DNA of 64,000 nt from Cenarchaeum sp. (GTDB lineage Archaea > Thermoproteota > Nitrososphaeria > Nitrososphaerales > Nitrosopumilaceae): contig OZ242221.1 in assembly GCA_965206845.1 (NCBI GenBank), positions 832,001 to 896,000 of the forward strand, read 5' to 3'. The position numbers and the translations under genes are program-made. Shown here piece after piece: positions 5,693 through 13,963 of the stretch; position 1 is the first letter of the stretch, and each line of letters starts with the position of its first letter. The notes under the pieces were generated by a model. The model did no database searches, was not told the DNA's origin, and worked only from the letters and a program-made list of their open reading frames with translations.

Positions 5693-5905
5693 AGTCTGCT
5701 GTATCCGTTTCTGTTCTTAAACGTGCATCGGCGGCGCGGGCCCGGGACTGCATGTACGCCGGGACGTGTGCGGGTCCGCCTGCCGCAGAGAGGCGGGCGC
5801 GATGGCCCACCCGGATGTACAGGCACATGCCAAAACGAAACGAGAGACGATCCCGTACCGGGAGGCTCTTTAACGATTTTTATATGGAACGCCGCCAGTC
5901 CGCTC

Positions 5906-7060
5906 ATGGAAGATGTCTGCGTCATTGGCGCAGGAAGCACAAAGTACGGCAAGCTGGAAGACAGCCTCGCCGACATTACAGTCCAGTCGTCTGCCAGCGC
6001 AATAGAGAGCGCCGGCATCGAGCCCAAGGAGATCAAGGCAGGGTACATCTCCAATGTTTTTGGCGTGGCCGACAAGCAGGTCCACCTGGGGCCCGTAGTG
6101 ATGAGCAATCTGGGCATCCCCGAGAGGCCTTCCCTGTCCATCGAGTCTGCATGCGGCAGCGGCTCGGTCTCGTTCAGGGAGGCATTTGCGAATGTGGCCG
6201 CCGGGTTTTATGATGCGGTTCTGGTTACCGGTGTTGAAAAGGTGACCCACACCGGAACAGAGTGGACCACGACCTACTTTTCATACTGCTCGGACTTCTT
6301 TTACGAGGGCCAGGCCGGAGCATCTTTTCCTGGACTGTTTGCGTCAATGGCCAGGGCATACCTTGCAGAGTTCGGGGCAACCGAGGAGGACTTTGCCATG
6401 GTCGCAGTAAAGAATCACGACAACGGACTGTTAAACCCAAAGGCCCACCTGCGGAAGAAGATAACCGTGGACGATGTGATGAGATCGCCCGTGGTGGCAA
6501 GCCCCCTCAAGCTTTACGACTGCTGCCCGTTCTCCGACGGCGCCAGCTCCGTCATACTCTGCAGCAAAAAGTTTGCCCAGGAGCACGGTGGCGACTACAT
6601 CAAGGTGACGGGCTCTGGCCGCGGAGGCTCGTCTGCCGCACTGCAGGGCCGTGAGCGCATAACCACGATACCCAGCACAAAGATTGCCGCCGATGCGGCC
6701 TACAAGATGGCGGGAATCACCCCCAGGGACATAGATTTTGCAGAGGTTCATGACTGCTTCACCATCGCCGAGGTGGTTGACAGCGAGGATCTGGGGTTCT
6801 TTGAAAAGGGCCAGGGATACCGTGCGGCACGGGAGAACCGGACCGCCCGGGATGGCGACATTCCGATTAACCCGTCCGGCGGCCTCAAGTCAAAGGGCCA
6901 CCCCATCGGCGCCACCGGCGTGGGCCAGGTGGTGGAGGTGTATGAGCAGCTGACCGGCAAGGCGGGCCAGCGGAACTTGAAGAACGTAAGCACCGGTCTG
7001 ACGCACAACTTTGGCGCCACCGGGGCAAGCTGCGCGGTTCACATATTTGAGAGCGTGTGA
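5906..7060 (+). CDS. Thiolase / acetyl-CoA C-acyltransferase (archaeal SCP2-type)
   Basis: ESACGSG, AEVHDCFT, NPSGGLKSKGHPIGATG; start moved to ATG 5906. Confidence 0.93.
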   Translation: MEDVCVIGAGSTKYGKLEDSLADITVQSSASAIESAGIEPKEIKAGYISNVFGVADKQVHLGPVVMSNLGIPERPSLSIESACGSGSVSFREAFANVAAGFYDAVLVTGVEKVTHTGTEWTTTYFSYCSDFFYEGQAGASFPGLFASMARAYLAEFGATEEDFAMVAVKNHDNGLLNPKAHLRKKITVDDVMRSPVVASPLKLYDCCPFSDGASSVILCSKKFAQEHGGDYIKVTGSGRGGSSAALQGRERITTIPSTKIAADAAYKMAGITPRDIDFAEVHDCFTIAEVVDSEDLGFFEKGQGYRAARENRTARDGDIPINPSGGLKSKGHPIGATGVGQVVEVYEQLTGKAGQRNLKNVSTGLTHNFGATGASCAVHIFESV

Positions 7061-7061
7061 G

Positions 7062-7427
7062 ATGTCTGCAAAGAGAGAGTTCATAGAAGCCGTCAGAACC
7101 GGCAAGGTGCTGGCAAGGGGGTGCACCAGGTGCGGCCTTGTCCAGCTGGGCACCGTCTGCTTCTGCCAGGGCTGCGGCTCCCGGGGTTTTGGTGACGTGA
7201 CACTGGAGGGCCGTGGAACTGTTGTTACCTATACCATAATTACGGTCCCGCCCTCCGGCTTTGAAAAGTATGTCCCGTATGCGTGGGTGGTAATCAGGCT
7301 GGACGGCTCCGATCTCCGGATCTCGGGATTTATGGGAGGCATAGCAGAGCCGGAGAGCCTTCCCATTGGAGTCGGTGCAAGGATCACCGGCTTTGACGAA
7401 AGGGGCATAGTTCTAGAAAGGACGTAA
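7062..7427 (+). CDS. Zn-ribbon/OB-fold protein (DUF35), thiolase partner
   Basis: CTRCG...CQGCGS, G.VVTYT...PP.GF; directly follows the thiolase gene. Confidence 0.9.
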   Translation: MSAKREFIEAVRTGKVLARGCTRCGLVQLGTVCFCQGCGSRGFGDVTLEGRGTVVTYTIITVPPSGFEKYVPYAWVVIRLDGSDLRISGFMGGIAEPESLPIGVGARITGFDERGIVLERT

Positions 7428-7589
7428 GGCGTGCCGGCAGCAGACAACTGCTGCCACACGGACGCGTACGTGGTCACCGGCCGCCCCGAACCAAGTGTGA
7501 AGACGTCCTGAAGCGCACGCACCGGTACCCAAGGTAGGGGAGACGGGGCATTCCGAAATCTTAATTATTCGGGCACGGTAGTATCAGCT

Positions 7590-7751
7590 GTGTCAGTCGA
7601 TGTAATCTGTGGAAAGTGTGGCAGCAAGATTACCAGCATGAAGACACTCAAGCCGATAAAGGAGTTAATGAACACGCATAAGGGCAAGTGCCCCTCCTGT
7701 GGACACGCCGTGTCGACGTCGGAGTTTACCTTGGATGTTCAGGACAGGTAG
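7590..7751 (+). CDS. Small zinc-finger protein (53 aa)
   Basis: GTG start; MSVDVICGKCGSKITSMKTLKPIKELMNTHKGKCPSCGHAVSTSEFTLDVQDR; two CxxC; AT-rich TATA-like tract about 25 nt upstream. Confidence 0.8.
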   Translation: MSVDVICGKCGSKITSMKTLKPIKELMNTHKGKCPSCGHAVSTSEFTLDVQDR

Positions 7752-7810
7752 GGGAACCGGCAGGCGCCGGCCACTACGCGCACCCCCACATGCACAAAAG
7801 AGCGCAGGCG

Positions 7811-9826
7811 CTATTGAACGGCCGGCCTTATCTGTGGCCTGAAGAAGGAGAGTAGCTCCGAGGCCCTCTCAATGGCATTCCTGACCGCTTCGGGATCAGA
7901 CCCCCGGCCGAACTCCAAGTCTGTCACTAGCCCGCCGCCAAACATCTCTGCGAGCCTGCTGATCTCAAGGATGTCTTCGCTCTCTGCAGAGTACTCGCCC
8001 ATCCGGGAACCATCAAGGGAGGTGCCCGTGCTGTAGGCCGGGCCGTCGAGGATTTTTTGAAGTGCGGCCTTGCCGAACTTGTCACCGTCAAGGGATGCAA
8101 GTCTTGCCGCACCGTCGCTCTCCACCATGCAGATTCTAATGTCGTCACCGCTCGCCTTGCTGCCCTTCTTTGCCACATCTGACGCGGTATTGATCACGCC
8201 GCGCAGTATGTTGCGCCCGTCCTTGTTGTCTTCATACCCCAGAATCCCAAAGACCGCCTCGTGCAGTCCGATCAGGTTCAGCGTCATGGATACGCTTCCG
8301 TGCTGCATGTGCTGGGTGTTTTTTACAAGCAGGGGGTTCAGCCCTTTCCTGATCAAGTCTGTAACGTGCCTGCGCCGGATGGACATGGCCTCCAGCACCG
8401 GCTTCATCAGGATGACCAGGTTGGCCCTAAAGTACATCTCGTCCTTGTTGGATTCAAGAGCCAGTCTTGGCAGGTTGATGGAGATGGAACCCAGGTGAAC
8501 CGATGTGGGATCCTTACCCCTGGCAGCGCATGCAACCCCCCCGGCCGATGTCTGCCCCTTTACAAACGCAACATGCCCGCCGAGACAGATGATCTCTGCC
8601 AGCCTTTCAGACATGTCGGTGATGCCTGCCCTGTCATAATCTATGATGAGGCCGATCTTTGGGGATGCGGTGATCTCTGCGTATCTTTTGTACGCCTCCA
8701 GAATCGTGGAGGTAACCTCTGGACTCTCACCCATCACGAGCCGGAACGAGACGATGGCCGGCTTTTCATTATACCTTGAGACGGTGGATGCGGCCGCAAA
8801 CGCACAAGCCATCTTTTGCTCCACATCTGGGAGCATCCCGGCGTACTCTGAGAGCAGCGGAACGAGTCCGTCCATAACCACCTCCTGAGATGCCTCTTTG
8901 TTGGATAGGGAGATCGACATCGATATCAGTGAGGACAGTTCGTCCAGGTTTTTGGCCGCCGGCAGCCTGGAGACATCATGGAGCTTGTCGCCTATGTCGA
9001 TACCGTTCTCCACCAGCTTTCTCACATCGAAGAAGACTATGTCAGGCAGCAGGGACCAGAGTCCGGGATTTGTAATGTGCAGGTCCCCGGAGAGGTAGGC
9101 GTCGGCCACATCCTTGGAGAGGTTGTTCGTAAGCAGGAGCTCCGAATGAATGACCTGGCCTGCCCTCAGCAGCAGATCTTCTGTGCTGCCGCCGTCGGTG
9201 TAATCCACATTTGTCATCGTCTCCTGCACATCATAAACCGGGAGTCCCAGTCTGGCAAGCCTGCTCCGGTACTCCTCGTGGCCGTGCTCCAGAAGGACCG
9301 AGTTTACCATCTCCCGGATGAGCGAGCTGGTAAGATGTGTAGTCTGATACTTGTATATGCGGTTCTCCACCTCCTCCGTAATCTTCTGCGCCAGCTCCAG
9401 CGGAAGGCCCCCCTCCCGAACCAGGGACTGTGTTATCTTGTGCGAGTTGAACTCCTCAATGGACCAGCGGGACGTTCTGACGTACATCTTGCCCGCCTCG
9501 ATTATGGATCTCTCCTCGATCTGCCTTGCAAGGCTGAGAACGAGCTTGCCCAGATTGGTAATCGTGTACTTCTTCTCGGATTTGTTCAGTGCAACCAGGG
9601 ACTGCTTGAGCAGTTTTCTTAGGTGGTATGCAAACTTGCCGCTCTCCTTTTTTGACCTGAACCCGGCATGTGACTTTAGCTCCGAGTATGTGAGAGGGCC
9701 TTTGGAGTTTAGGATTCGTAGGATGTCGATTCTGTTGGGGCTTGCCATGACCGAGAAGATCATTTTTACGCGCTTGGAGGTAGAGCGGATTATTCCGCCC
9801 CTTCCGGGTGCTTCTGATGCCATCAC
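7811..9826 (-). CDS. ArsR-type wHTH + ATP-cone + degenerate class III ribonucleotide reductase (NrdD-like) fusion
   Basis: N-terminal wHTH (NRIDILRIL...LTYSEL...YHLRKL...YTIT.LG); ATP-cone (VRTSR.SIEEFN..KI..SL...IREMVNSVLLE.G); NrdD-like motifs AYLSGDLHI, GSISINLPRLALES, IGLHEA, RLASLD.DKFG; no C-terminal glycyl-radical domain. Confidence 0.8.
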   Translation of the reverse strand: MMASEAPGRGGIIRSTSKRVKMIFSVMASPNRIDILRILNSKGPLTYSELKSHAGFRSKKESGKFAYHLRKLLKQSLVALNKSEKKYTITNLGKLVLSLARQIEERSIIEAGKMYVRTSRWSIEEFNSHKITQSLVREGGLPLELAQKITEEVENRIYKYQTTHLTSSLIREMVNSVLLEHGHEEYRSRLARLGLPVYDVQETMTNVDYTDGGSTEDLLLRAGQVIHSELLLTNNLSKDVADAYLSGDLHITNPGLWSLLPDIVFFDVRKLVENGIDIGDKLHDVSRLPAAKNLDELSSLISMSISLSNKEASQEVVMDGLVPLLSEYAGMLPDVEQKMACAFAAASTVSRYNEKPAIVSFRLVMGESPEVTSTILEAYKRYAEITASPKIGLIIDYDRAGITDMSERLAEIICLGGHVAFVKGQTSAGGVACAARGKDPTSVHLGSISINLPRLALESNKDEMYFRANLVILMKPVLEAMSIRRRHVTDLIRKGLNPLLVKNTQHMQHGSVSMTLNLIGLHEAVFGILGYEDNKDGRNILRGVINTASDVAKKGSKASGDDIRICMVESDGAARLASLDGDKFGKAALQKILDGPAYSTGTSLDGSRMGEYSAESEDILEISRLAEMFGGGLVTDLEFGRGSDPEAVRNAIERASELLSFFRPQIRPAVQ

Positions 9827-10415
9827 AGTCGCTCCCGGCAGCTGAACCCGGAGGCGGGGTAGATTACTCCGATCCTTCCGGATCGCGCCATCTCTTCAGA
9901 CTCCACGTGTCTGCTATGAATCATGGACTAATTTAAGATTATTACTTTGTCCCGGGCCTCTCTGGATCCGGCATGGCAGGTTTGGGAGGCTCCGTGGATC
10001 CCTGACCGGTGCCTGCCACATGACCCGGCCCGTGTGACCAATCCGGGGGCCGTCTGCAGGCCCTGCCTCCGCCCCATACGTCGATCATGCCGCCGCCCCC
10101 TTGCGTGCGATGCCGTCTAGGGCGCCCGTGGCCGACTCCCGTGGCATGGCCAACCGCGCCGCGGTGCGGCCGCCTGCGCCTGCAGATCTCGCGCTTGAAC
10201 CCGCGGGCGTCCAACCCCATGTCGTTTCACGCGTCCATACTGTCTTGCGCATGGGCTGTCACAGGCCCGAAATCCCTCTGTCCTGCGATGCCCGTTTTTT
10301 GCACCATTATACGATGCAGCATAAAGATTTTGACGTATGCGGGAACAGAATATCTGGTTTTTTGATTGAATCGGGGGCTGGTTTTGGACGGCCTAGACGG
10401 CGCTGTGATCCAATC

Positions 10416-10540
10416 TGTCACACGAAAATCGTGTTGACAATGTCGTAATTCATATCTGAACACAAAAATAACATCCAGGTACGAGCTCAAACAGACGTAA
10501 AACGTATTCAAAATCTTAATTAACACATTTGTTTACGTCT
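10416..10540 (+). promoter_or_regulatory. Putative nrdJ promoter with operator-like inverted repeats
   Basis: TATA-like TTAATTAA about 10516-10523; AGACGTAAA (10493-10501) and TTTACGTCT (10532-10540) flank it; TGTCACACGA-AAA-TCGTGTTGACA at 10416-10439. Confidence 0.5.
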
Positions 10541-10547
10541 TAGTTAC

Positions 10548-13199
10548 TTGTTGAACTCACAAACTAATGAACCAACCATACTCTCAGTTCGAAAGCGTGA
10601 CGGCAGTGTCATGGGGTTCGACCAAGAGAAGATATCAAACGCCATCTACAAGGCAATGTTTGCCACATCCAACCCCGACCGCGGCGTGGCCGAGCAGCTG
10701 ACAAAGCATGTCGTGGAGAAGCTCATGCAGCAGGGGTTCTCGGCCGATCGGCCGCCCAGCGTCGAGACCATTCAGGACATGGTAGAGACCACACTGATCG
10801 AGCGGGGACACAGCGAGATCGCCAAGGCCTACATTCTGTACCGGCACGAACGAAGGAAGGTAAGGGAAGAGAAGATGAGGATCCTCAACACAAAGGATCT
10901 TGATCCCGTGGCAAAAAGATTCGACACCAACTCCCTGCGCGTCCTTGCCTCCAGGTACCTTCTAAGAAACAACAAGAACGAGATCGTCGAGGGCCCGGAG
11001 GAGATGTTTAAGAGGGTTGCAACGCTTGTTGCCATCGGCGATCTCATATACAGCCAGCAGATATTCACAATAAATGGCAACCAGAAGCAGAGTATCAAGG
11101 AGGCCCAGGCGTATCTTGAAAAACTGGACGACTTTGACTACAAGCTCAGGATTGGCAATTACTACCTCAACAAGTTTCACCTGCGGTCCCTAATCAACTG
11201 CTACGTATACCTTGCCCGCGGCGGACACATGACCAAGAGCTTCAAGGAGCTGATGAGGATGATCGCCGCCAAGAAGTTTAACAGCTATGCTGAGAAGATA
11301 GACGAGTACTTTAAGCTGATGGCCTACCAGGACTTTCTGCCAAACTCCCCAACGATGATGAATGCAGGAGCCCGGCTGGGGCAGCTCTCTGCGTGCTTTG
11401 TGCTGGACATGCCCGATGACATGGGGGGAATTATGAAGACCACGTCCGACGCGGCCATGATCTTCAAGTCCGGCGGCGGAGTCGGAATCAACTACTCTGG
11501 CCTGCGCCAGGAAGGCGACATAGTCGCATCCACGTCTGGTGTGGCATCGGGTCCCGTATCGTTCATGAATATAATAAATTCTGTGACCGAGGTGGTAAAG
11601 CAGGGCGGAAAACGGCGCGGCGCGAACATGGGAATCATGGAGGTGTGGCACCCGGATATTGAAAAGTTTGTCACCAACAAGACCGAGCCCGGCATTCTTG
11701 AGAACTTTAACGTCAGCGTGGGACTCTGGGAGGACTTTTGGGATACGCTGCTCAACACGCGCGAGGGCAAGTATGCGCTTCGCTCCCCGCGTGACAGGAG
11801 CCCCGTCAAGGAGGTAAACGCCCGCCGCCTGATTGACCTGATTGCGCTGTCTGCGTGGAAGAGTGCAGAGCCCGGACTGATCTTCTTTGATCAGATCAAC
11901 CGGTACAACGTATTTGCAAAGGCAAGAGGGGGCCCGCTTCGCGCAACAAATCCCTGCGGAGAGCAGAGCCTGTATCCGTACGAATCCTGCAATCTGGGAT
12001 CCATCAATCTGGCAAACCTGGTGAAGAGAAAGGCCGACGGGGAGTACGAGTTTGACTGGCAGAGATACGAGGAGACCGTCAGAAAGACCACCAGGTTTCT
12101 GGACAGCGTAATAGATGTGAACCTCTACCCGGTGCCTGAGATTGACGCGGCGTCCAAGGAGTCCCGCAGGATCGGGCTGGGCGTGATGGGGGTGGCAGAC
12201 CTTCTCTACAAGCTACGCATACCGTACAACTCCGAGGAGGGATACGATCTGCAGAACAAGCTGGCCGAGGCACTGACGTACTATTCCATGGAGGAGAGTG
12301 TTGCCCTTGCCAAGGCCCGCGGCAGGTTTCCGCTGTGCCCGAAGACCGAGTACCCCGACGGGAAGATCCCGGTTGCCGGCTACTATGAGAAGCCAAAGGA
12401 GCAGCACAGGTACGAATGGGACACGCTCATAGACAGAATCAAGGAGCACGGAATCAGAAACGTGCTGACGACCACCGTTGCCCCCACCGGAACCCTTTCC
12501 ATGATCGCAAGCTGTTCAAACGGAATGGAGCCCACATTTGCCCTTGCCTATGAGAAGAGGGTGACCGTGGGCAAGTTCTTCTACGCCAACTCGATAATAA
12601 AACAGATGCTTGAGGAAGACAACCTGTACACCGATGAGATACTTGCAAAGATTGCAGACAACTACGGCTCCCTCAAGGGAATACCGGAGATTCCCGAGTG
12701 GATGCAGAAGATCTTTGTCACGGCAATAGACATTCACTGGTCGGACCATCTGATGGCACAGCAGGTGTGGCAGCAGTGGATAGGAAACGCGATAGCAAAG
12801 ACCATCAACATGCCACACGACGTACTGCCAGAGGATGTCGCAGCCGCATATCTTCTTGCACACGAGCTTGGGCTGAAGGGGATCACGGTCTACAGGGACG
12901 GTTCAAGGCACAAGCAGGTTCTGCACATAACCAACAAGAACACCGAGAAGAACTTTGATGTGGTGCCTTCGCAGGTGGTGACCGACTTTGTATCCCAGAA
13001 TATAACAAACCAGTACATGCGGGACCAGATAAACAACTCGCTGAAGATCAGGCCCGGCGAGGACATCATTGCGACTCACAATATCGCCGAAAGCGTACCC
13101 GAGGGAAGCCTGTGCCCTGAGTGCAAGAACAACCTCATCTTCGCCGAGGGCTGCAGCCTCTGCATCGAGTGCGGATACAGCCACTGCACGTCAGGATAG
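10548..13199 (+). CDS. nrdJ: Adenosylcobalamin-dependent (class II) ribonucleotide reductase with N-terminal ATP-cone
   Basis: VRKRDG ATP-cone; PNSPTMMNAG, QLSACFV, QGGKRRGANM, TNPCGEQ, SCNLGSINL, TVAPTGT, LKGITVYRDGS; C-terminal CPEC/CIEC; no intein evident. Confidence 0.95.
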   Translation: MLNSQTNEPTILSVRKRDGSVMGFDQEKISNAIYKAMFATSNPDRGVAEQLTKHVVEKLMQQGFSADRPPSVETIQDMVETTLIERGHSEIAKAYILYRHERRKVREEKMRILNTKDLDPVAKRFDTNSLRVLASRYLLRNNKNEIVEGPEEMFKRVATLVAIGDLIYSQQIFTINGNQKQSIKEAQAYLEKLDDFDYKLRIGNYYLNKFHLRSLINCYVYLARGGHMTKSFKELMRMIAAKKFNSYAEKIDEYFKLMAYQDFLPNSPTMMNAGARLGQLSACFVLDMPDDMGGIMKTTSDAAMIFKSGGGVGINYSGLRQEGDIVASTSGVASGPVSFMNIINSVTEVVKQGGKRRGANMGIMEVWHPDIEKFVTNKTEPGILENFNVSVGLWEDFWDTLLNTREGKYALRSPRDRSPVKEVNARRLIDLIALSAWKSAEPGLIFFDQINRYNVFAKARGGPLRATNPCGEQSLYPYESCNLGSINLANLVKRKADGEYEFDWQRYEETVRKTTRFLDSVIDVNLYPVPEIDAASKESRRIGLGVMGVADLLYKLRIPYNSEEGYDLQNKLAEALTYYSMEESVALAKARGRFPLCPKTEYPDGKIPVAGYYEKPKEQHRYEWDTLIDRIKEHGIRNVLTTTVAPTGTLSMIASCSNGMEPTFALAYEKRVTVGKFFYANSIIKQMLEEDNLYTDEILAKIADNYGSLKGIPEIPEWMQKIFVTAIDIHWSDHLMAQQVWQQWIGNAIAKTINMPHDVLPEDVAAAYLLAHELGLKGITVYRDGSRHKQVLHITNKNTEKNFDVVPSQVVTDFVSQNITNQYMRDQINNSLKIRPGEDIIATHNIAESVPEGSLCPECKNNLIFAEGCSLCIECGYSHCTSG

Positions 13200-13294
13200 G
13201 CGTACACCATCAGATCCATGCCCGACATCACAAGCTATGCGGGCAACGAAAGGCCGGCATGGGCCGAGCTCAGGAATGACATCTCCGGGTAGCC

Positions 13295-13963
13295 TTGCTC
13301 TCCCTGATCTTTGCCGAGTCATCGCTGGAGCTGGTACCCAGGGAACTTCAGGCCCACCGCTCCGTGGTGTCGCACGCAAGAAGGCTGGGAAAGAGGCCCG
13401 GCGAGATCCTGCTTGATGTCTCCTGGCACTACGCGGCCATGCGTGGAATCAAAGACGGGATGAAGCGCGGCAGGCCCGACCTGATCCACATGTGCCTGCA
13501 GAATGCATGCAGCACGCCGCTGTACCTCAGGGGAGGCCTGACGATATACGTACACACCATATCAGGCAGGGTGATCACAGTTGGCAGCGGCATCCGCCTG
13601 CCAAAATCGTACCACCGCTTCGCGGGACTGATGGAGAGGCTTTTTCTGGACGGATCCGTCGAGCACGAGGGCAGGAGGATGCTGGATCTTGACACGATGA
13701 GCCTTGCAGAGGTGGTAGAAGAGATCCGGCCCGGCGCCATACTTGGGCTGTCAACCCTGGGCGACAGGATCCAGCTGCCACGACTGGCATCAGAACTGGC
13801 CGGAGGCTCGTGCGTAGTAATAGGCGGATTTCAGAGGGGGCACTTTGCCCCGCATGTGAGCAGCGTCATGGACGCGACGTACAGAATTGGCGACGACCCG
13901 CTTGAGGCCCATGTGGTCACGAGCCGGGTGCTCTACGAGTATGAAAAGACGGTTTTTATGTAG
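13295..13963 (+). CDS. nep1: 16S rRNA pseudouridine methyltransferase Nep1/Emg1
   Basis: LLD.S.H, RGRPDLIH, RLPKSYHRFAGLMERL, IGGFQRGHF. Confidence 0.92.
   Translation: MLSLIFAESSLELVPRELQAHRSVVSHARRLGKRPGEILLDVSWHYAAMRGIKDGMKRGRPDLIHMCLQNACSTPLYLRGGLTIYVHTISGRVITVGSGIRLPKSYHRFAGLMERLFLDGSVEHEGRRMLDLDTMSLAEVVEEIRPGAILGLSTLGDRIQLPRLASELAGGSCVVIGGFQRGHFAPHVSSVMDATYRIGDDPLEAHVVTSRVLYEYEKTVFM

Follow-up and report, generated by a model that had tools for sequence, protein, structure and literature searches.

Among the described systems closest to the protein reported here are NrdD, the anaerobic class III ribonucleotide reductase (RNR), and NrdR, a bacterial repressor encoded beside RNR genes. 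Published passages on NrdD give Gly580 as the glycyl-radical residue of the T4 enzyme (Table 1 of PMC2795772), name an HxHD motif for the substrate phosphate (PMC11226230), and describe how Lys7, Arg8, Arg87 and Arg91 in the ATP-cone of PcNrdD neutralise nucleotide phosphates (PMC11226230). Transcriptional control of deoxynucleoside triphosphate (dNTP) supply in archaea is largely unknown, and NrdR is called rare there in the relevant parts of PMC9110341 and PMC12176259. We analysed a 64,000-nucleotide stretch of Cenarchaeum sp. (contig OZ242221.1, positions 832,001 to 896,000; hereafter the window, to which all positions refer) and describe in it a gene, here called X, whose product joins a winged helix-turn-helix (wHTH) to the barrel of a class III RNR that has lost its radical residues. 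We put at roughly 0.6 the probability that X binds DNA and regulates genes of nucleotide supply. The narrower proposal, that it is specifically a nucleotide-responsive regulator of RNR genes, falls a little short of even odds.

X combines three recognisable domains in one protein.

7811..9826, minus strand: gene X (wHTH, ATP-cone-like domain and dead NrdD barrel), 671 amino acids (aa); Pfam, NCBIfam, AlphaFold2 (AF2) model and structure alignment
9536..9760, minus strand: ArsR-type winged HTH of X, aa 23-97; Pfam, family profile, invariant columns and model secondary structure
9269..9487, minus strand: ATP-cone-like domain of X, aa 114-186; Pfam, alignment to genuine NrdD cones and a structural match
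7814..9214, minus strand: NrdD-like alpha/beta barrel of X, aa ~205-671; VIA alignment to T4 NrdD 1h7b and residue counts

The frame opens with GTG, and an ATG lies one codon further in. At the N-terminus Pfam finds DUF7347 (aa 23-97, 43.6 bits), HTH_20 (aa 27-79, 32.1 bits against a cut-off of 27) and also HTH_5, followed by an ATP-cone (aa 114-186, 38.4 bits, cut-off 25.8) and a weak NRDD match (aa 443-653, 60.8 bits, cut-off 26.2). On TIGR02487, the NrdD equivalog of NCBIfam, X reaches 57.6 bits where 326.35 are required. Public records call relatives of X 'anaerobic ribonucleoside-triphosphate reductase', 'helix-turn-helix domain-containing protein' or 'ArsR family'; a preliminary description of this locus, made from the letters alone, had rightly expected automated pipelines to mis-name it an anaerobic RNR. 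No description of a wHTH-cone-NrdD protein turned up in the full-text literature searched, a scope outside which subscription journals and supplements lie, and the portions of PMC9669993, PMC4390871 and PMC2795772 reached by the search terms make no mention of such proteins.

The fold of X is that of a class III RNR. The AF2 model, built from a 91-row family alignment, has a mean predicted local distance difference test score (pLDDT) of 92.4 and a predicted template modelling score (pTM) of 0.85, and its best Foldseek matches are all class III RNRs (E 1e-19 to 1e-12). Against T4 NrdD (1h7b), VIA-align returns a Z of 30.3 and a root-mean-square deviation of 2.9 A over 434 residues, with the 10-stranded alpha/beta barrel present. 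Z runs from 24 to 30 for class III entries, does not exceed 21 for class I/II and is about 18 for other glycyl-radical enzymes. The family profile matches solved NrdDs at E 5e-43 to 8e-32. The cone fold is also in place, since matches to solved NrdDs that bear a cone start at model residues 112-125. Pfam, the model and the class III structural matches thus bear out the wHTH, ATP-cone and NrdD barrel first assigned to this 671-aa protein, and comparison with NrdD by profile and structure puts X closest to class III RNRs.

That X is a catalytically dead NrdD paralogue is very well supported at the level of sequence. We aligned 91 members of the X family with 10 genuine Thermoproteota NrdDs (the five scoring highest on TIGR02487 and five that adjoin X-like genes) and counted residues in columns invariant among the genuine enzymes. 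The two finger-loop Cys (MCCRL) survive in 0/91 and 3/91 members, and the window's X holds A and G in their place. The Cys of PYCVGWD survives in none of the 91, and the second His of HxHD in two, being lost from the window's X as well. Thirteen members retain the Gly of RVVGY, a column with 45 gaps. The NLP motif is kept (N in 89 of 91, P in 80). We take the T4 NrdD residue numbers to be C79, C290 and N311.

The C-terminus divides the family. X in the window ends at the last barrel strand, and alignments with genuine NrdDs show neither CxxC..CxxC nor RVxGY beyond it, as the preliminary description had said in placing its end before the Zn site and the glycyl-radical loop. Extended to the family, that statement holds only in part: the Zn-ribbon Cys are retained in 73-75 of the 91 members, the window's X being among 16-17 without the ribbon, and a relic of the Gly loop, with no conserved Gly, persists in the long forms. 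A Cys in GVACAAR, once thought to lie near the finger loop, is present in the window's X; it falls outside the finger-loop Cys columns and is unconserved: the cluster representatives closest to X read GVVR, GVPN and GIHK.

The genome encodes one working RNR and no apparatus that would revive X. That RNR is the neighbouring gene.

10548..13199, plus strand: nrdJ, intact class II (B12) RNR with an ATP-cone, 883 aa; Pfam, NCBIfam

One contig of 1.65 Mb makes up the genome, whose completeness is rated at 99.99%. The nrdJ product, composed of a cone, an all-alpha domain and a class I/II barrel, scores 717 bits on TIGR02504 (NrdJ_Z, cut-off 400), as befits the intact class II enzyme it had been taken for. 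Its class I/II barrel is the only one in the genome, which makes nrdJ the sole RNR gene; X supplies the one NRDD match, and X and NrdJ the only two ATP-cones. Across the whole genome the Gly_radical model PF01228 and the NrdR model TIGR00244 have 0 matches each. Three models for the activase NrdG reach at best 28.3 bits (TIGR02491, cut-off 126.1), 47.8 (TIGR02495, 131.15) and 22.5 (TIGR02826, 151.7), all on one 238-aa radical S-adenosylmethionine open reading frame (ORF) that scores highest as QueE. The lack of nrdG first noted in the window therefore extends to the complete genome. Radical residues lost family-wide, and a genome with neither activase nor glycyl-radical domain, uphold the proposal that X is a pseudoenzyme.

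The N-terminal domain carries the marks of a DNA-binding module. The first ~95 positions of the family profile match HlyU, NolR and ArsR chains (E 1e-4 to 6e-4). In the model, aa 47-89 form a helix-turn-helix with a beta wing, and a long helix follows at aa 91-111. Within the recognition helix (~aa 59-74), G63, F65, Y67 and H68 are invariant over 91 family sequences, and invariance across members this diverse argues for a selected DNA contact.

X may also act as a dimer. A homodimer of residues 205-671 was predicted with a score of 0.59, the best of 3 controls scoring 0.00; among proteins of solved structure, 20 of 30 same-chain pairs and 1 of 23 single chains attain that level, although the pass may reflect likeness only, because NrdD dimers are among the solved structures. 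At least 88% of contacts were common to runs, and partner pLDDT was at least 84. The predicted interface consists of helices 213-227, 293-311 and 337-352. In RNRs, a helical face of this type is the specificity-effector site.

The cone-like domain departs from genuine cones where these hold phosphate. T-S-R-x replaces their K-R-D-G, the segment to which Lys7 and Arg8 of PcNrdD belong, and V-R-T-S is invariant in the X family; the full set of invariant cone positions is V116, R117, T118, S119, F126, I131, L165, T166, I170, R171, R187 and R192. Basic residues are kept at the C-terminal end only. Nucleotide binding by this domain is plausible but not secure. Free-standing ATP-cone ORFs of 93-97 aa occur in genomes without X (L223, at G149:C1:633111-633332, and L224), with the cone part of NrdR as best NCBIfam match at 28 bits.

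X belongs to a large family that coexists with genuine NrdD. A word-indexed search returned 4171 homologues at E<=0.001 among 8000 candidates scored, so the true number is higher; the best 120 are 61-65% identical. In a library clustered at 50% identity, 1013 clusters match at E<=1e-3, 547 at E<=1e-10 and 159 at E<=1e-30. Among 401 Thermoproteota genomes searched, all 56 sampled from the window's family hold a full-length copy, and many other families hold a frame of ~740-790 aa whose first ~330 residues are 35-47% identical to X; these are the long forms with the Zn ribbon and Gly-loop relic. Genuine NrdD scores above the TIGR02487 cut-off in 192 of the 401 genomes, often together with an X-like gene, and in 11 genomes the two lie 2-4 kb apart by coordinates. 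Judged from these sequences, X is a paralogue of NrdD with its own role. Nor is the family confined to Nitrososphaerota: forms of ~750 aa occur, together with a genuine NrdD, in many other Thermoproteota families.

A quick maximum-likelihood tree of the barrel region, unrooted and built without bacterial NrdDs, separates X from the enzymes. A single branch, with a Shimodaira-Hasegawa-like approximate likelihood ratio test (SH-aLRT) value of 100, has all 10 genuine NrdDs on one side. Short forms of the ammonia-oxidiser type make up one clade (SH-aLRT 98), and the window's X forms a clade of three with two other short forms, of 659 and 664 aa (SH-aLRT 99). A single origin of X is compatible with this tree and the tree says no more, because it lacks a root and bacterial NrdDs. 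Atlas clusters with the Pfam architecture of X are labelled Promethearchaeota, Bathyarchaeota, Nanobdellota and Woesearchaeota, and are unverified leads only.

X is linked to RNR genes across lineages. Nitrosopumilaceae share the one-strand order thiolase > DUF35 > small Zn-ribbon ORF > X > nrdJ. X and nrdJ follow one another on the same strand in 28/28 Nitrosopumilaceae loci with room for both (one more locus is incomplete) and in 70 of 71 such named loci (nine more are incomplete). The named loci were found with a 14-row X alignment and all those returned are Nitrosopumilaceae; the two counts are not independent, because the species are closely related and some genomes probably occur in both sets. 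In other Nitrososphaerales families, 3/3 loci give the same order. Among 44 loci outside the ammonia oxidisers, four read X > nrdJ, two X > glutaredoxin > nrdD, three X > nrdD and one X > dcd, and four repeat the order thiolase-DUF35-X. X stands beside nrdJ in some loci and beside nrdD in others, and therefore accompanies RNR genes of two classes. Four of the 44 adjoin pyrB and six adjoin pyrI (both Pfam-verified), all convergent with X; in about 10 more the corresponding position holds an ORF as long as pyrB, known by size alone.

The arrangement in the window is a local rearrangement of this conserved order. X and nrdJ lie head-to-head there with 721 bp between them, as the preliminary description reported; that layout is true of the window and is not the conserved one, which is co-directional, and it is the linkage itself that conservation supports. 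Compared with 28/28 and 70/71 related loci, X and its promoter (segment 7772-10171) are inverted, an inversion seen solely in the window's genome among the loci examined. A small ORF helps to place it.

7590..7751, plus strand: small CxxC..CxxC Zn-ribbon ORF, 53 aa; 59-64% identity, kept between DUF35 and X in Nitrosopumilaceae

This ORF, whose weak NCBIfam matches are all below cut-off, is now convergent with X and therefore marks one edge of the inversion. The sole candidate for the break points was a 12-nt imperfect inverted repeat (7760-7771 / 10172-10183), which we set aside as too short to trust.

The region between the two genes holds promoter-like elements and candidate operators.

9827..10547, no strand: divergent control region common to X and nrdJ, 721 bp; ORF coordinates
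9925..9945, minus strand: X promoter-like element GTAATAATCTTAAATTAGTCC, with a transcription factor B recognition element (BRE) and TATA box; alignable with GTCATAAGTCTTATTTACTCC, which precedes X in other Nitrosopumilaceae
9870..9885, no strand: perfect palindrome CGATCCGGAAGGATCG, two GATC cores 10 bp apart; candidate operator only
10406..10411, plus strand: TGATCC box, 141 bp upstream of nrdJ; candidate only, in the position range where Nitrosopumilaceae GATC boxes cluster
10508..10526, plus strand: TATA-like element of nrdJ, TCAAAATCTTAATTAACAC; sequence

The palindrome at 9870-9885 sits between the TATA-like element of X and its start codon. In Nitrosopumilaceae, GATC boxes with a consensus of about AAAAnTGATCTAA are concentrated around X: 15.2 GATC per kb upstream of X (65 segments) and 14.3 in the X-nrdJ spacer (68 segments), against 2.4 in 145 other intergenic segments of the same loci and 4.0 in coding sequence. 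The median density of either X-flanking region is reached by 1.4% of the other intergenic segments. Successive spacings peak at 10-11 and 18-21 bp, a phasing around X that is suggestive.

Other elements were noted in the same regions. A 16-nt inverted repeat (10112-10127 / 10386-10401, 258 nt apart, 10 nt of it perfect, GCCGTCTAGG / CCTAGACGGC) lies in the X-nrdJ control region, and positions ~9990-10220 are unusually GC-rich. Rfam has no match on 7300-10700. The palindrome TATGAAnTTCATA of the Nitrosopumilus X-nrdJ spacer, absent in that form from the window, was rejected as an operator: at <=1 mismatch a genome contains 16-25 copies of it and 6-12 of the reversed control, which makes it unspecific. 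By eye, TGTCAAT and CTACAnnATTTTATACA-like elements recur upstream of X-linked nrdD or nrdJ in several families (L086, L087, L071, L070, L060, L041, L073), and resemble GGTGTCAATATTTTTGAAC...CATTTATACC upstream of Nitrosopumilaceae nrdJ. We discarded them as a second regulatory element; they overlap TATA-like sequence, and exact-word counts are uninformative.

These observations fit a scheme in which we infer DNA binding, ligand, operator and sign of regulation. X, a class III NrdD paralogue that has gained an N-terminal ArsR-type wHTH, would most likely act as a dimer to regulate the transcription of genes for nucleotide supply. In ammonia oxidisers it would control nrdJ, the single RNR gene, and probably also the X gene itself. 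The sensor would be retained RNR allosteric hardware: the cone-like domain, the helical dimer interface and perhaps a vestigial substrate pocket. Nucleotide occupancy would shift the conformation or oligomeric state of X and so alter its DNA binding, as in bacterial NrdR. In the window's genome, a local inversion has made the X > nrdJ tandem a divergent pair with a common 721-bp control region.

A regulator is the best reading of X because its DNA-binding domain is constrained, it is linked to RNR genes of two classes and the genome lacks NrdR, and a set of observations weighs against it. GATC is not enriched in the GC-rich window (9.7 against 7.7 per kb). Triple-GATC clusters number 10-13 per genome against 7-10 in the control, with no sign genome-wide of a wider regulon. 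Four AT-rich genomes of a family we label f5 (L190, L191, L192, L201) carry 3-4 GATC within 200 nt upstream of nrdD, and a search of five f5 genomes with X residues 1-210 found just a lone cone of 93-97 aa or an unrelated HTH, two of the five being among the four with arrays. We therefore do not assign the GATC boxes to X: similar arrays stand upstream of nrdD in a family where no X was found, and enrichment is lacking both genome-wide and in the window. Another factor may read the clusters upstream of nrdD in f5. ATP/dATP binding by X is uncertain because Thr-Ser replaces the canonical Lys-Arg; of the earlier claim that X reads ATP/dATP through its cone, the above-cut-off Pfam match and the aligned fold stand, and the pair's loss leaves it less secure than assumed. 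Linkage has its exceptions too: in G353, of the window's own family, no nrdJ lies within ~3.9 kb downstream of X; the rearranged named locus L159 has lost the adjacency; and in 34 of the 44 loci outside the ammonia oxidisers X is beside neither an RNR gene nor dcd. NrdR lies directly upstream of genuine nrdD in two genomes, both of another family, that have X-like genes (156 and 150 bits, TIGR00244 cut-off 124.65; L214:501-947, plus strand, and L219:658-1101, minus strand), and the same C-terminal sequence, unscanned, precedes nrdD in L215, L216, L220 and L222. X is thus not simply the archaeal substitute for NrdR. The idea of an NrdR analogue keeps the absence of NrdR from this genome and the conserved RNR linkage in its favour, and gives up simple replacement, because the two proteins coexist in other lineages.

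X could instead regulate general nucleotide or pyrimidine metabolism, or replication-linked genes, its place beside nrdJ being inherited synteny. Pfam-verified pyrB or pyrI genes beside X in 10 of the 44 loci, the one locus with X before dcd, and NrdR already standing beside nrdD in some genomes with X all lean that way. The pyrBI genes, however, meet X tail to tail, an adjacency that says little about co-regulation and may itself be inherited synteny, whereas the co-directional neighbours of X are RNR genes of two classes; we consider this alternative improbable. Less probable again is that X is a regulatory or scaffolding partner of an active RNR, forming for example mixed oligomers through cone or barrel with the HTH as a tether or vestige. 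X and NrdJ both have cones and adjacent genes, and control of RNR activity by cone-mediated oligomerisation is described in PMC11226230 and PMC9110341, but the recognition-helix residues are invariant over 91 members, and X accompanies RNRs of two classes that differ in interface fold.

An enzyme with non-radical nucleotide chemistry in the barrel pocket would explain why the whole barrel is conserved and modelled at high confidence and why NLP is kept at the frequencies given above. X has, however, lost the Cys residues, HxHD and the Gly loop and shows no evident catalytic motif, and fusion to a wHTH is typical of sensors, so that we hold this to be highly improbable. Nothing was found in favour of X being a true class III RNR whose missing parts are supplied in trans, as a separate glycyl-radical domain and an activase, the case the preliminary description had set against its own proposal. 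It is contradicted by 0 matches to PF01228, by three NrdG models far below cut-off and by the missing finger-loop Cys, and its probability is negligible.

The reading of X as a regulator extends, more tentatively, beyond this genome. In several archaeal phyla, a dead class III RNR with a wHTH may serve as a transcription factor, in which the RNR allosteric apparatus reads the nucleotide pool and sets how strongly the working RNR, of either class, is expressed; such a protein, derived from a tandem nrdD duplication, would be NrdR's missing archaeal counterpart. We rate this generalisation slightly below an even chance. Evidence for a dead-RNR regulator covers Thermoproteota including the ammonia oxidisers, and Asgard and DPANN archaea are unverified leads.

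Traces of expression and habitat come from sponge metagenomes. In two metatranscriptome libraries of one sponge-metagenome study, contigs 95-100% like the window cover X (8341-9849, 8831-9890 and 7611-7969) and nrdJ (10611-11344, 10737-11605 and 11676-13243). They lend weak support to transcription, because such libraries can contain DNA. Positions ~9891-10561 are uncovered in all four runs, a missing cover that proves nothing. Sequence near-identical to 7000-13400 occurs in sponge-metagenome runs and with several host organisms, as would fit an archaeon associated with sponges.

The flanking genes add a record of synteny. The thiolase and DUF35 (oligonucleotide-binding fold/Zn-ribbon) pair at 5723-7427 in the window is directly upstream of X in ammonia oxidisers and in a distant family (L081, L082, L089, L047). 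An ORF of ~354 aa precedes the pair; the arrangement resembles ancient synteny, and a functional link is not obvious. After nrdJ, 13295-13963 on the plus strand encodes a Nep1-type ribosome biogenesis protein / rRNA pseudouridine methyltransferase (243 bits on NF003207, cut-off 250).

If X is a regulator built from a whole dead RNR, it would show plainly how an allosteric enzyme can be recycled into a nucleotide sensor with several inputs, and it would offer a way into the control of the cell cycle and of dNTPs in ammonia oxidisers, which are abundant worldwide. It would also correct thousands of records that name X an anaerobic RNR, a name that wrongly implies anaerobic dNTP synthesis in aerobic nitrifiers.

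X borrows from three known systems and matches none of them. With NrdD, as solved from T4, T. maritima, P. copri and S. thermophilus, it shares the barrel fold and the N-terminal cone, and the predicted X dimer uses the helical face of NrdD. Unlike NrdD, X lacks the thiyl-radical Cys, a conserved radical Gly, the full HxHD and an activase, and adds a wHTH; most X relatives keep the C-terminal Zn ribbon of NrdD, whereas X in the window does not. Like NrdR, X couples a DNA-binding domain to a cone, is encoded beside RNR genes, and would follow the same proposed logic from nucleotide state to DNA binding. The two differ in that NrdR binds DNA through a Zn ribbon and X has a wHTH, homology being limited to the cone; the cone of X is without the canonical Lys-Arg, and X carries a 460-aa dead RNR barrel. 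The N-terminal ~95 aa of X match ArsR/SmtB-type regulators such as HlyU, NolR and ArsR by profile and Pfam, but those proteins stand alone at ~100-125 aa, whereas X bears a cone and a barrel as putative sensor domains.

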